From an uncultured Candidatus Rokubacteria bacterium (GTDB lineage Bacteria; Methylomirabilota; Methylomirabilia; Rokubacteriales; DASRDR01), in contig CAVPSB010000013.1 in assembly GCA_963708025.1 (NCBI GenBank), positions 512,001-576,000 on the forward strand: a stretch of 64,000 bases of DNA, written 5' to 3'. Position numbers and translations under genes: made by a program. Position 1 is the stretch's first letter; every line of letters starts with the position of its first letter. Positions 940 to 33,658 of this stretch are shown piece by piece. The notes beneath the pieces were generated by a model. That model made no database searches. It worked only from the letters and a program-made list of their open reading frames with translations, and had not been told where the DNA came from.

Positions 940-1812
940 CTAGCTCATCCCCGGCACGAAGGCGTCCCGCCCGCGCTGATAGGTCGGCTGCCGCTGGGCC
1001 GGATTCCGGTTGACCAGCGGGCGCAGGTAGAGCGGGCTCAGGAGGCTCCGGACCTCGTGCTCGATCGTGAAGAGCGGTCGGTTCGTGTCCGGATCGACGA
1101 TGTCCTGGAACCGGTACTGGTACCAGTTGCTCTCCTCGGTGACGAGCCCGCGCTCGCCGAGCCACCGGTGCGGCCCCGAGAAGTTCGCGATGTAGATCTG
1201 GAGATGGTGGCCGTCGTAGACGGGCATCGGGTCGGCGGTCTCCCGGAAGACGAGCTCCTGCTGGGGACCGACCGTCACCCGCGCCGCCGTCCCGCCGCCG
1301 TTCCGGACCACCGCCGCCGGCGCGCCGAAAGCGGCCCGGTAGAACCGCGCGACCCCGTCGGCGGCCCCCGGCTCGACCGGGAACTCGACGTAGGGCATGC
1401 CGAGCGTCATGGTCCCGAAGGCGGGACCCGGCGCGTAGCAGCGGATCACGTTGCCCCAGGGCGAGACCACGCGGACGTGCTTGTCCTCCACCGCGTACTC
1501 GAACTTCGTCCCCGCCAGCCGGGGCTTGACGGCTTCCAGTCGCCCGGGCAGCTCGTCGTGATCGGGGATGACGAGGCCCACGTGGCCGCGGAGCACCTGG
1601 GGCCGGCCGGTGGGCAGGTGGAACTGCTGCTGCCCGATGTTGACCCACATGTTCTCGAGGCCGGGCATCAGGTACGGGTCACGGGTCAGTCCGAGGCCCA
1701 CCACGTAGAAGAGGGTGGCGACCTGCTGGTCGGGAACCATCACGTTGACGTGTTCCAGCGCCACGATGTTGCCGACGTCCTGGGTGCTCCGGTCGTGCGT
1801 CTCGCCCGCCAT
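940..1812 (-). CDS. VOC/glyoxalase-like two-domain protein
   Basis: ORF 940..1878; ATG at 1812 preceded by AAGGAGG; LEHVNV..FYVVGLGL, QFHLP, GHHLQIY motifs. Confidence 0.7.
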   Translation of the reverse strand: MAGETHDRSTQDVGNIVALEHVNVMVPDQQVATLFYVVGLGLTRDPYLMPGLENMWVNIGQQQFHLPTGRPQVLRGHVGLVIPDHDELPGRLEAVKPRLAGTKFEYAVEDKHVRVVSPWGNVIRCYAPGPAFGTMTLGMPYVEFPVEPGAADGVARFYRAAFGAPAAVVRNGGGTAARVTVGPQQELVFRETADPMPVYDGHHLQIYIANFSGPHRWLGERGLVTEESNWYQYRFQDIVDPDTNRPLFTIEHEVRSLLSPLYLRPLVNRNPAQRQPTYQRGRDAFVPGMS

Positions 1813-7529: not shown

Positions 7530-8183
7530 GGCTCGGCTCTCCTTGCTGTCACCGCGACCTCGGGGGCGCGGCCCGGACGCTCGGCCGGTTCGACCCGCGT
7601 CGAGCGGGAAGACGCCCGCCGGAGGAGCTCGCGCCAGAGGGTGGCGGGGTCGGCGCGAAAGATCGTGTCGGCGTCGGGCTCGAGGACGTACCAGTCGTCG
7701 CGGGCGATCTCCGCCTCGAGCTGCCCCGGCGCCCAGCCCGCGTAGCCGGCGTACACCCGCAGCTCGCGGGGGGCGTCGGACCGCCGGAGCAGTCCGTCCA
7801 GGAAGACCCCATCGAGGCTCAGGTAGACGTCCGCCAGCACCCGCAGCGCGGCCTCGGGCCGCTCCCTCGATCGGAACACGGCGACCAGGCGCCGCGGCGA
7901 GACGGGGCCCCCGGCGAACAGCCGGTCCGTCCGGCCCCGGAGCGCCTCGTGCTCCGGAAGGAGCTGGCTCGCCGGCACCCGCGTGGGCCGGTTCAGGATG
8001 ACGCCGACCGACCCCGCCACCGGGGTGTCGGGTGACCAGCACCACCGTCTCCCGGAAGTTCGGGTCGCCGAGCACCGGCTTGGCGACGAGCACGACGCCG
8101 TTGGGCGCGTCCTGCGCGGCGGCGGCGGTCGCCGCAGATCAGCCAGAGCCCGGCGGCGAGGAGTCCCGTCCTTGCTTGACATT
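7526..8183 (-). CDS. YqgE/AlgH (DUF179) family protein with N-terminal signal-like segment; frameshifted
   Basis: LVAKPVLGDPNFRETVVLV / GVILNRP..GGPV..YAGYAGWAPGQLEAEI. Confidence 0.85.
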
Positions 8184-31317: not shown

Positions 31318-32691
31318 CTATGAGCGGCGCAGCGCGGCGAGCAGGTCGTCGGCGGCGGCGAGGAGGCGGTCGATCTCGCCGCGGTCCACGTTCGAGTTCG
31401 TGATCCCGTAGGCCCAGCGGTACCGCGTCTGGTCGAGGACCGTCTCGAGCGGGACATCGACGATCCGGTCCAGGTCGGCCGTCGGGGGCAGGTAGCCGAG
31501 GTAGTCGTTGCAGTAGCCGAGCACGGCCGTCGTCGGGAAGGGGCTCCGCTCGCGGAGGGCCCGGCCGGGCCCGCTGAACAGCTCGAACGGGAGGCCGACC
31601 AGAGCGGTCTCGCCGACGGCGAGCACCTGGACCTCGGCCTCCACCGCCACGTCCTGGCGCCGGCGCATGTCGCGGTACATCCCGAGCGCGCCACGCTGGT
31701 AATGGAGGGGGAAGCGCTGGGCCGAGGTGGCGGTGTGGACGTCGTCGGGCCAGGCCGCCGGGTATGCCGGCTCGGCCTGCGCGGCCAGCCGGCGCTCCGT
31801 CGCGTCCAGGTCGGCGTCGCGCCAGGGCAGCCGGCGGCGCCGCAGCGGGACCACGCGGCTCGCCGCCGCCAGCGCGATGTCGGGCGCCGTCCGGATCGCG
31901 GGCAGGAGGCGCCGCACCTCGGCCGCGAGCCCGCTGCCGACCCGGTCGCGCGCCGGGAAGCCGTGCGACGTGGCCGCCTCGTTCCCGAACCAGAAGTCGA
32001 GCGGCGCGAGGTCGCCGCCGCACGCCTGGAGGAAGAGGCACTCGGCGGTGGGGAGGGCCTGACGGATCCCGTCGCGCAGCGCATGGGGGAAGTCGGCGTT
32101 CCAGCTCAGGGTCTGGCCGCCGACGCAGGTGCCGTGGCAAGCGAAGGCGACGACCACTGCCACCGGCCCGCGCGCGCCGTCCACCCGCAGCACGGTGACC
32201 GCGTCGTCCACGGGCCGCTCCCGGTCGACGCGGTTGACCGAGATGCCGGGAGCCCGCCCGACGGCGCTCCCGACCGCCACCGGCTCCAGGCGCGCGCTCG
32301 CCCCGTAGATGGCCCCGGCGATCCGCTCGGGGAGCGTCGCGGCGTAGCGCTCGTAGCCGCCCATCGGGACCAGGGCCTCGACGCTGCCGGTGTCCACGAG
32401 CACCGGGGCGCTGTGGTTGTGGGAGGCGTTGAGGAGGACGGCCTCCGGGACGATGCCGGTCAGCTGGTGGGCACGCCGGCGGGTCGCGGTGGCCAGCTCC
32501 CGCGTGATCCAGAGGAGATCGGTCGCGACGACGGCGACCCGGCGCGCGCCGTCGTCGAGGACGACGGCCTGGGCGAGGAGCGGCTCCGCGACCGCGTCGG
32601 CCCGGCCGGTGCGGAGCCGCCAGGCGCCCGGCTCCAGGCCGAGCGGCGGGGTGACGTCGACCGCGCACACTCCGCCGCGCAGCCGGCCCAC
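31318..32691 (-). CDS. Neutral/alkaline ceramidase-like metallohydrolase
   Basis: VDVTPP, ASHNHSAP, FACHGT, ADFP, FLQ..GGD, GY.NDY.GYLP. Confidence 0.8.
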   Translation of the reverse strand: MGRLRGGVCAVDVTPPLGLEPGAWRLRTGRADAVAEPLLAQAVVLDDGARRVAVVATDLLWITRELATATRRRAHQLTGIVPEAVLLNASHNHSAPVLVDTGSVEALVPMGGYERYAATLPERIAGAIYGASARLEPVAVGSAVGRAPGISVNRVDRERPVDDAVTVLRVDGARGPVAVVVAFACHGTCVGGQTLSWNADFPHALRDGIRQALPTAECLFLQACGGDLAPLDFWFGNEAATSHGFPARDRVGSGLAAEVRRLLPAIRTAPDIALAAASRVVPLRRRRLPWRDADLDATERRLAAQAEPAYPAAWPDDVHTATSAQRFPLHYQRGALGMYRDMRRRQDVAVEAEVQVLAVGETALVGLPFELFSGPGRALRERSPFPTTAVLGYCNDYLGYLPPTADLDRIVDVPLETVLDQTRYRWAYGITNSNVDRGEIDRLLAAADDLLAALRRS

Positions 32692-33005
32692 GCGCCTACT
32701 CTCTCGAGCGATGCCCGCCTACCACGGCCACGTACCGGGCCGAGGCGCGGGCGCCGGCAAGACGAGCGAAACGTCTCACGGGCGGTTCGACATGACGAAT
32801 CGGCTCCCCTTACGACCTCGGCGGCGCGTCGCCACCGGCCAAGCCGCCGCCGACCGGTGCACGTGTCCGAACAGCGGACCGCATGATACCCCACCGCGGC
32901 GGTCGAGCTCATCAGGGCTCTGGCGGTCCGGGTTCCGCGGAAGGACCCGCGCCGGTCGGCGATGCCGGCCGGCGCGGGAATCTCCGCGCCGCAGTCAGCG
33001 CAGGA

Positions 33006-33539
33006 TCAGTTGTCCTGCTCGATGAACGGCAGGATGATCGCGGCCTGCCCCGGGCCGCCGTTGATCTGGAAAGTCGCCATGGGCCGCGGGATGCGTCCCT
33101 GCTGGCCGCGCGGCGTCAGGAGCCCGATCAGGATGGCGATGATTCCCTGTGAGTCTCCGAAGACGATGGTGTTGCTCGTGCCGTCCGTGATGCTCAGCGC
33201 CTTGCCGTCGTAGGTCGCCTCGACGACGACCTCGAAGAAGGCGCCCGCCTGAGGCGGCGTCTCGATGTCCACCTGCCCCAGTTCCTCGCCCCCGTCGCCG
33301 AAGTAGGTCAGCCTCACGACCCCGCGCTGAACGGCCGGCAGCCACAGCCGCGCGAGCGCGGAGCCACCGGGTGCCAGCTGCACGGGGCCGGCCACCCAGG
33401 AGACGCCGACGTCGCGCACCTGGTTGACGCCGATGCCTTGCGCTGCCTCGGCGACCGTCGGGCCCACCGCCAGGCTCGACAACAACGTCACGAGCGTGAA
33501 GCGCCGGGTGAGAGTCCCGAGCTCGCCGCCTGTCAGCAT
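33006..33539 (-). CDS. Small exported hypothetical protein carrying DUF1559/prepilin-like motifs
   Basis: ATG 33539 with GAAGGA upstream; signal-like N-terminus ending AEAAQ; motifs LPAVQ, [31 protein letters not shown]. Confidence 0.7.
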   Translation of the reverse strand: [177 protein letters not shown]

Positions 33540-33642
33540 GCGTCCTTCCACGTGTCGGCTCCTTTCGAGTTGTGGGGACCGCCTGAGCCCCGTTCCGGCA
33601 GTCCGACCGCGCCAGCCCACCCCAGGGCACCCGGACTCGATG

Positions 33643-33658
33643 TGCACGGAGGGTGCCA
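33643..33658 (-). promoter_or_regulatory. Sigma54 (-24/-12) promoter candidate
   Basis: Minus strand TGGCACCCTCCGTGCA has correct GG-N10-GC spacing against the TGGCAC-N5-TTGCW consensus. Confidence 0.55.

Follow-up and report, generated by a model that had tools for sequence, protein, structure and literature searches.

A gene on the minus strand of the 64,000-nucleotide stretch analysed here (the window hereafter; contig CAVPSB010000013.1, positions 512,001 to 576,000, from an uncultured Candidatus Rokubacteria bacterium) encodes a small, predicted exported protein that carries short segments of DUF1559 pilins. We propose that this protein is an exported pilin-word mimic, built from DUF1559 fragments and driven by sigma54, and we would give this reading a probability of about 0.4; the mimic mechanism is its weakest step. 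The shared segments are referred to as words and are labelled N (prepilin), A (GIIAILIGL), B (LPAVQ), C (ILPFIEQDN), D (DGTSNT) and E (the H-X9-DG tail, DGSVRF). A sequence-only reading of the window had drawn attention to five motifs of this protein, all of which were recovered on the minus strand exactly where it had placed them (Table 1). In a six-frame scan of the whole 8.17-Mb host genome, DGTSNT, IIAILIG and LP[FY]IEQ co-occurred only in this gene.

An undescribed family that conserves the words

A word-indexed search identified 49 homologues of 101-237 amino acids (aa), none of which has a Pfam domain or an informative name; since the index requires shared exact 5-mers, this set is biased to homologues that retain the words. 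An exhaustive hidden Markov model (HMM) search without the word index gave 388 clusters at E<=1e-3, of which 53 reached E<=1e-10 and 7 reached E<=1e-30, and its full-length relatives likewise carry the words. No Pfam or NCBIfam model covers the family, and a Pfam scan of longer or fused relatives revealed no informative partner domain. The ESM Atlas was uninformative (best score 0.82), and no description of such DUF1559-word proteins was found in the literature on DUF1559/H-X9-DG proteins.

The family alignment (A1) comprises the query and 37 of the 49 homologues. Left out were P0002, a cluster representative of 181 aa that is 100% identical to the window protein, and the shorter or redundant sequences P0008, P0009, P0013, P0014, P0016, P0021, P0029, P0037, P0044, P0046 and P0048. 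The invariant and near-invariant columns of A1 are DUF1559 words, including LP(AVQ). The word columns (n=35) have a mean top-residue frequency of 0.86 and an entropy of 0.64 bits, compared to 0.54 and 1.62 bits for the non-word columns of the mature part (n=97). The A word reaches a top-residue frequency of 0.95, other predicted strands 0.54-0.66, and D119 to T124 of the D word are at least 90% conserved. Synonymous codons of the words differ among loci: Ser is encoded by AGC, TCC, TCA or TCG, and several different codons are likewise used for Gly and Leu. Therefore the words are conserved at the protein level and do not represent a DNA repeat or a recent patch transfer. An origin of the words at the DNA level, from a repeat or a mobile element, was ruled out by the same codon differences.

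The sequence-only reading had named several ways in which it could fail. One of them, homologues that do not conserve the motifs, is contradicted by the column frequencies; another, a chimeric assembly, is excluded by intact full-length homologues in many independent assemblies, down to 40% identity and with the words kept. As judged from these homologues, the open reading frame (ORF) is a real gene of an undescribed family of small, predicted exported proteins.

Relation to DUF1559 pilins

DUF1559/H-X9-DG proteins come from Planctomycetota, Verrucomicrobiota and their relatives. In type IV pilin-like proteins the A word is the N-terminal helix, and in pilins it serves as membrane or fibre-core segment. 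The family was compared profile to profile (hhalign) with a reference alignment of nine canonical planctomycete pilins, which resulted in four local matches. Residues 133-177 of the family match DUF1559 positions 25-107 (A..C block; probability 95.9%, E 5e-9) and residues 108-129 match positions 192-217 (D block; 91.9%, E 7e-7), followed by residues 1-73 with positions 1-39 (signal and B; 30%, E 5e-4) and residues 33-45 with positions 301-309 (E block; 9%, E 0.004). The resemblance is not due to chance, the order of the matches is non-collinear, and the full-length collinear DUF1559 match that would have spoken against the sequence-only reading was looked for by hhalign and not found.

The words follow each other as (E)-B-D-A-C in the window family and as N-A-B-C-D-E in DUF1559 pilins. 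A census of 197 proteins found the order NABCD(E) in all 10 proteins with the prepilin word and only in those, while the order is EBEBC, BEB or BBEB in wider relatives and BBCBEEB in double-domain forms. The motifs had been described as scrambled by the sequence-only reading. This is correct for the overall order, but the A..C block at the C-terminus is arranged as in pilins and the domain consists of two repeats of one unit; the term overstates the disorder, and the word order is not random. The H-X9-DG tail, which had been reported as absent, is indeed missing from the window protein, but most family members have it as GDGSVRFL directly behind the signal peptide. The position of this segment at the mature N-terminus of relatives, together with ILPFIEQDN as C-terminus of the window protein, also distinguishes the family from H-X9-DG-CTERM (TIGR04294) proteins.

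Searches with established profiles gave the fragmentary picture that had been predicted. PF07596 matches residues 134-166 of the 213-aa frame, around DGTSNT, below threshold (15.1 bits versus a cut-off of 23.3) and over positions 147-174 of 268 in the profile only. There was no match to N_methyl (PF07963/TIGR02532) in Pfam or NCBIfam, and NCBIfam returned nothing for the window protein, TIGR04294 included.

The family and DUF1559/SBP_bac_10 pilins share five short, nearly letter-identical modules including ILP(F/Y)IEQxN, the DGSVRF of most family members, the collinear A..C block and export. They differ in several respects: the window protein has no class III prepilin signal and comprises ~140 mature residues compared to ~300 in pilins, the family is predicted to fold as an all-beta sandwich, with a strand where pilins have the helix word, and it is found in genomes without DUF1559 paralogues. 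An ordinary, very divergent DUF1559 pseudopilin would explain the weak PF07596 match and the shared words. However, that match is fragmentary and below the Pfam threshold, N_methyl and TIGR04294 do not match, the profile matches are non-collinear, both models are all-beta, and at the prepilin position there is no Gly(-1) ahead of Phe and Thr instead of Glu at +5. This explanation is already contradicted and hardly credible. Based on sequence and models, the window protein is not a pilin, as it has neither G-1/F+1/E+5 nor a pilin fold, and the claim that it is not an ordinary DUF1559 homologue can be maintained.

Predicted fold, internal duplication and word exchange

AlphaFold2 with A1 predicts an all-beta structure for the window protein (P0001), with a mean pLDDT of 74.7, values of ~90 at residues 50-130 and low values in the signal region. 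GIIAILIGL is modelled as strand 133-141 and the D word as a hairpin. A second model, based on a wider alignment (A7), was obtained for a relative with 27% identity (P0062; pLDDT 86.3); it has the same strand pattern, and the equivalent of the A word is strand 134-144. Mature helices do not exceed 3-7 residues in either model, and both lack the long N-terminal helix on an antiparallel sheet that characterizes the type IV pilin-like fold. Foldseek returned nothing from the PDB at E<=1e-3, with TM-scores of 0.2-0.4. A wide structure search retrieved TM1070 (1nc7_A; Z 8.8, rmsd 3.2 and 106 of 116 aligned for P0062, Z 7.5 for P0001) and the galectin 4agg_A (Z 8.0 for P0062, 7.2 for P0001), values in a range that is common for unrelated models. 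TM1070, galectins and GOLD/jelly-roll domains resemble the family in their size and in the predicted two-sheet beta-sandwich, but no sequence relation was detected by a PDB profile search, which found nothing below E 0.1.

The mature part (~140-145 aa, from residue 37) is predicted to be a pseudo-two-fold beta-sandwich that originated from internal duplication of a unit of ~60-70 aa. The two halves match each other within A7 (probability 97.1%, E 5.7e-11, 36 columns), although within A1, the window subfamily, alone the match is not significant (E 0.05). Each unit starts with a hairpin that carries a DG-turn word, continues with a hydrophobic strand that has LP(AVQ) at its end, and closes with another hairpin; it resembles a circularly permuted, strongly shortened DUF1559 of the form [D/E][A B][C]. 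The second hairpin holds DGTSNT in the window clade and GDGSVR in most other relatives, and P0086 has DGTSNTIVF in yet another hairpin. At the C-terminus, the slot of ILPYIEQ, relatives have ILPYIEQDNLFRR, MCDGSV or FFDITL. As far as sequences and models allow a judgement, the words are interchangeable modules at equivalent structural positions among relatives.

Re-use of fragments across folds and circular permutation are known concepts in protein evolution. The present case shares with known sub-domain fragment re-use the occurrence of identical short segments inside different architectures, but here the segments hardly differ between phyla, and one segment takes the place of another at the equivalent position. 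For the field of protein evolution it would be an unusually clean and recent example, in which a nine-residue pilin helix has turned into a predicted strand. We infer from the sequence comparisons that the family arose by recombination and duplication of DUF1559 fragments, followed by patchy spread to lineages without DUF1559; the origin from re-used fragments is well supported. A motif-shuffling process had been suggested before from the sequence alone, and it fits the non-collinear matches, the internal duplication and the swapping of words among relatives.

Since the words lie in strands and the contrast in the ratio of non-synonymous to synonymous substitutions (dN/dS) is modest, plain structural re-use stays a strong rival to mimicry, and we consider it a possible explanation. 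In that case the family would still descend from DUF1559 fragments, the words would survive as good building blocks for hairpins, strands and turns, and the protein would have an envelope or extracellular job unrelated to pilins, e.g. binding of a ligand, in the manner of a lectin or otherwise, under sigma54. In the confident models the words coincide with strands and turns, the fold is like that of galectin, GOLD and jelly-roll sandwiches and of TM1070 at Z 7-8.8, the host lacks DUF1559 genes as possible interaction partners, and words and non-words differ little in selection in the closest pair. However, those structural matches do not exceed what unrelated models commonly reach. A buried strand normally tolerates exchanges among I, L and V, but GIIAILIG is at least 90% invariant, compared to 0.54-0.66 in other strands. 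Moreover, relatives swap words for other DUF1559 words and not for arbitrary sequence, and the same words occur in scaffolds of unrelated, non-sandwich type as well as in 29-53-aa peptides.

The words in other proteins

The re-use of pilin words is, as judged from the sequences, apparently a wider and undescribed phenomenon. An acidobacterial protein of ~340 aa (contig L003, 7056-8078, plus strand) has DUF1559 words near the N-terminus and at the exact C-terminus and FGDGSVRFI in the middle; no prepilin motif was seen on reading, and an orthologue is present in a second genome (L032). Two actinobacterial mini-ORFs, one of 53 aa with a signal peptide (L005, 7955-8116, plus strand) and one of 29 aa (L033, ~1441-1530, plus strand), contain little beyond DGTSNTIM...GIIAILIGL and the stop codon. 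They come from 2 of the 61 Solirubrobacterales-like genomes searched, and the genome with the 53-aa ORF (G253) has no PF07596 match. Repeat proteins in which DGTSNT is present 4-8 times are numerous (P0089, P0095, P0104, P0105, P0112, P0117 and many others). Their length is ~215-350 aa, with one of 797 aa; some have PEP-CTERM-like C-termini, and Pfam recognizes repeated PF07596 fragments only. Planctomycete-type extracellular proteins carry three copies of GIIAILIGL, and P0077, P0079 and P0125 have the A-type word three times between polar linkers. Among proteins without the prepilin word, 8-9 residues separated the D word from the A word behind it in 49 of 64 cases.

These proteins also bear on the idea of an aggregation or assembly poison, in which the aggregation-prone IIAILIGLL would kill or disarm competitors through sequence-specific co-aggregation or by blocking pseudopilus assembly. 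A target genome encodes tens to hundreds of DUF1559 proteins with this word; the planctomycete G251, for example, has 57 PF07596 matches. One study reports that each Planctomycetales genome has the word in at least 41 genes and that 91 T. immobilis proteins carry it (PMC8567305), and another describes synthetic peptides with aggregation-prone regions common to many proteins as lethal to bacteria (PMC5830399). The threefold copies between polar linkers, the secreted or very small D+A peptides in genomes without DUF1559, and a family that evolves fast and is often lost, as expected for a conflict gene, would be in line with such a function. Nevertheless, we regard it as unlikely. In the models of the window family the word is located inside a folded domain, access to the word in target pilins is doubtful given its place in the membrane or fibre core, and no uptake route, immunity gene or transporter is encoded nearby.

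A more general version of this idea is that the DUF1559 words make up a natural lexicon whose entries interfere in a sequence-specific manner. Bacteria without DUF1559 pilins would export proteins and mini-peptides with exact copies of invariant and highly redundant pilin segments. We consider this rather unlikely at present. If true, the lexicon, especially DGTSNTI...GIIAILIGL, would jam pseudopilus assembly or trigger co-aggregation in DUF1559-rich competitors. It would then be the natural counterpart of synthetic aggregation-targeting peptides and a new class of inter-bacterial weapon or decoy.

Another protein with matches to the pilin domain, P0192 (942 aa), consists of an N-terminal domain of a BlaR1-type M56 peptidase/sensor fused to three stretches that match PF07596. 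This architecture suggests that DUF1559 domains are able to serve as extracytoplasmic sensor modules.

Host genome and distribution

The host genome (G000; 8.17 Mb, 71.2% GC) is 99.67% complete and 8.18% contaminated. It contains no PF07596 match, with the 57 matches of G251 as positive control, and in its six frames the words were not found outside the window gene. In the host phylum, 6 of 251 genomes have PF07596 matches, all of them fragments or atypical. Of these 251 genomes, G000 and G238 contain the window family, and a search of 20 genomes from the host's family found it in none. In G238 the gene context is different from that of the window; this bin also encodes a 538-aa prepilin (L026, 322-1935, minus strand) that has N, A, B, C and E of the DUF1559 words along with a degenerate D and is considerably extended at its C-terminus, although with 7% contamination and 800 contigs the co-residence of prepilin and family member is not certain. 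A genome scan with the whole alignment yielded at least 612 stretches, mostly of the DUF1559 pattern, with 4 relatives among the matches listed. Viral contigs gave 61 pattern matches and no relative. Genomic context is available for three loci, two from the metagenome scan and one from the genome scan, all from close relatives of the host.

Proposed role as a pilin-word mimic

We propose that the protein would be transcribed from the sigma54 promoter and exported, and that outside the cytoplasm it may act as a mimic of pilin words; a mimic, decoy or bait had also been suggested by the sequence-only reading. The words would have to be read by a partner that recognizes DUF1559-type pseudopilins, and for this reason their residues would be kept identical and only another DUF1559 word could take their place. 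Candidates for this partner are the pilins themselves or their assembly and quality-control machinery. It would most likely belong to neighbouring bacteria rich in DUF1559, such as Planctomycetota, Verrucomicrobiota or Acidobacteriota. The outcome could be either interference or docking.

Several observations weigh against mimicry. In the models most words are placed in strands and turns of the sandwich and not on exposed loops, with the A word as a central strand. This position suggests burial and fits re-use as structural elements better than the display of epitopes. The word index of the homologue search favours the very feature under discussion. Other contigs of the host genome encode nine ordinary N_methyl proteins and a single prepilin peptidase, and with pilins and a prepilin peptidase of its own a self-directed role is conceivable. 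The window family was present in 0 of 41 planctomycete genomes at E<=1e-5, with the best candidates per genome (at most 85) scored, and 2 of 61 acidobacterial genomes showed module-level matches only. No gene neighbour is conserved beyond close relatives. The gene decays in relatives, and the window has lost its second paralogue by deletion. Finally, the closest orthologue pair is under only moderate selection: compared to the orthologue on L011, dN/dS is 0.56 for the whole protein, 0.37 for the words and 0.52 for mature positions outside them, and even the B word is not the same in both.

Among the bacterial gene expansions that still lack an explanation, that of the DUF1559 pilin-like proteins is one of the largest. 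The invariant DUF1559 segments also exist outside pilins: they build a separate, predicted exported family and recur in repeat proteins, unrelated scaffolds and 29-53-residue peptides. Some of these word proteins occur in genomes without any DUF1559 gene. For microbial ecology this provides a testable lead on what recognizes the motifs. If the words are kept because they are read, identification of the reader would help to explain both the word proteins and the pilin expansion. According to PMC8567305, Planctomycetales genomes hold at least 41 genes with a prepilin motif each, most of which also have an SBP_bac_10 domain.

Gene, export signal and promoter

The features of the locus are compiled in Table 1. 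GTG at 33551 is the likelier start codon because a Shine-Dalgarno-like AAAGGAG lies 7 nt ahead of it and P0002, P0003 and P0004 have an equivalent Val start; the alternative, ATG at 33539, would result in 177 aa. In the reading frame of the coding sequence (CDS) the GC content of third codon positions (GC3) is 0.88, and the local GC of 0.71-0.72 is the same as that of the 707-kb contig and of the whole genome.

A basic n-region and a hydrophobic 12-mer are present at the N-terminus in 65 of 75 aligned family and superfamily rows, and 16 of those 65 have RR. No HMM of the twin-arginine translocation (Tat) pathway in Pfam or NCBIfam matches the window protein. Judging from its sequence, it carries a cleavable signal peptide of either the Sec or the Tat type.

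The promoter-like site TGGCACCCTCCGTGCA is the sole sigma54-like match in the window, where 0.08 are expected, and at least one match occurred in 8 of 100 shuffles. It is identical in two contigs of close relatives (L010, L012) and degenerate in a third (TAGCACTCTCCGTGCA in L011); the flanks are about equally conserved, and the conservation of the site therefore adds little. A scan for sigma70 promoters and terminators found none. The host genome contains rpoN and 40 PF00158 matches, ~25 of them full-length enhancer-binding proteins, none of which is encoded in the window. In view of the single match in the window, the genome-wide enrichment, and the presence of rpoN and activators, the promoter assignment of the sequence-only reading is plausible, and a sigma54 promoter for the window gene is likely.

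The host genome in general makes strong use of sigma54. TGGCAC-N5-KTGCW occurs 47 times genome-wide, compared to 2-8 times for six spacing or permutation controls.

Table 1 Positions of the gene, its signals and words, and adjacent features in the window
Feature	Position	Strand	Remarks
CDS, 181 aa	33006..33551	minus	GTG start, stop 33006-33008; predicted exported beta-sandwich family with DUF1559 words
Signal peptide	33444..33551	minus	Putative, read from sequence; twin-arginine n-region (TRRFTL), h-region, AEA|AQ cleavage-type site
RRFTLVTLL	33480-33506	minus	In the signal peptide region
B word LPAVQR	33324..33341	minus	End of a predicted strand; LPAVQ itself 33327-33341
D word with DGTS turn	33153..33194	minus	Predicted beta-hairpin, model strands 114-118 and 124-129; hhalign match to DUF1559 positions 192-217
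A word (GIIAILIGL)	33117..33146	minus	DUF1559 alpha1-N helix word; here predicted strand 133-141
C word ILPFIEQDN	33009..33035	minus	Protein C-terminus; collinear with the A word against DUF1559 positions 25-107
Shine-Dalgarno-like AAAGGAG	33559..33565	minus	7 nt 5' of GTG 33551; read from sequence
Sigma54-type -24/-12 promoter-like site TGGCACCCTCCGTGCA	33643..33658	minus	One departure from the consensus TGGCAC-N5-TTGCW
Paralogue 2 remnant ATGTCGAACCGCCCGTGA	32776..32793	minus	5-codon stub MSNRP and stop, with ribosome-binding site; from alignment with L010
Ceramidase-like hydrolase gene	31318..32691	minus	Downstream; PF04734 sub-threshold, E 4.8e-5; syntenic in close relatives

Locus and tandem paralogue

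As judged from sequence comparison, three contigs of close relatives (L010, L011, L012) show the ancestral locus. Its order is a sigma54-like site, paralogue 1 (the window clade), a spacer of ~130 nt, paralogue 2 and the ceramidase-like gene, which in the window is 84-87% identical to the genes following the paralogue pair in L010 and L011. Paralogue 2 belongs to a second clade. Its copy in L010 (7893-8408) is complete with 171 aa and 95% identical to P0036, and that in L011 starts at 1103; in the tree, read without row L010_par2, the two paralogue clades are split with support values of 95/100 and 87/99. In the window only the remnant of paralogue 2 is left, within positions 32735-32920 on the minus strand; the homologous spacer extends to ~32920. 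The gene had been said to stand alone. This is true in so far as no pilus gene is found nearby, but relatives possess the tandem paralogue. The other neighbours encode a CoA-transferase, a DUF3592 protein, an amidohydrolase and an M23 peptidase; neither pilus genes nor an immunity gene or a transporter are present near the window gene, and Rfam gave no match between 30000 and 37000.

Paralogue 1 is altered in two of the relatives. In L010 (~7690-7760) a 1-nt insertion near the end changes FIEQDNG to VHRAGQR, as also seen in P0012 and P0020, possibly due to a sequencing error. In L012 (~860-970) there is an internal deletion and a frameshift, which reflect either decay or sequencing error. The frameshift, the internal deletion and the loss of a whole paralogue, together with a dN/dS of 0.56, the rare and patchy distribution (2 of 251 genomes of the phylum) and 8.18% contamination of the host bin, could point to a decaying relic or an assembly artefact without function. 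This is very improbable, as intact full-length homologues with the words kept are found in many independent assemblies to 40% identity and two deep clades are both maintained. In addition, the GC3 signature is that of a coding sequence, the GC content of the gene fits a 707-kb contig of typical composition, and the fold predictions are confident.

The label of contig L010 (224,965 bases) refers to an uncultured alphaproteobacterium. Nevertheless, the contig shows synteny with the window and 84% identity in the adjacent gene, whereas the window genome is placed in a phylum represented by only 251 genomes. Probably one label or bin, that of L010 or that of the window genome, is wrong.

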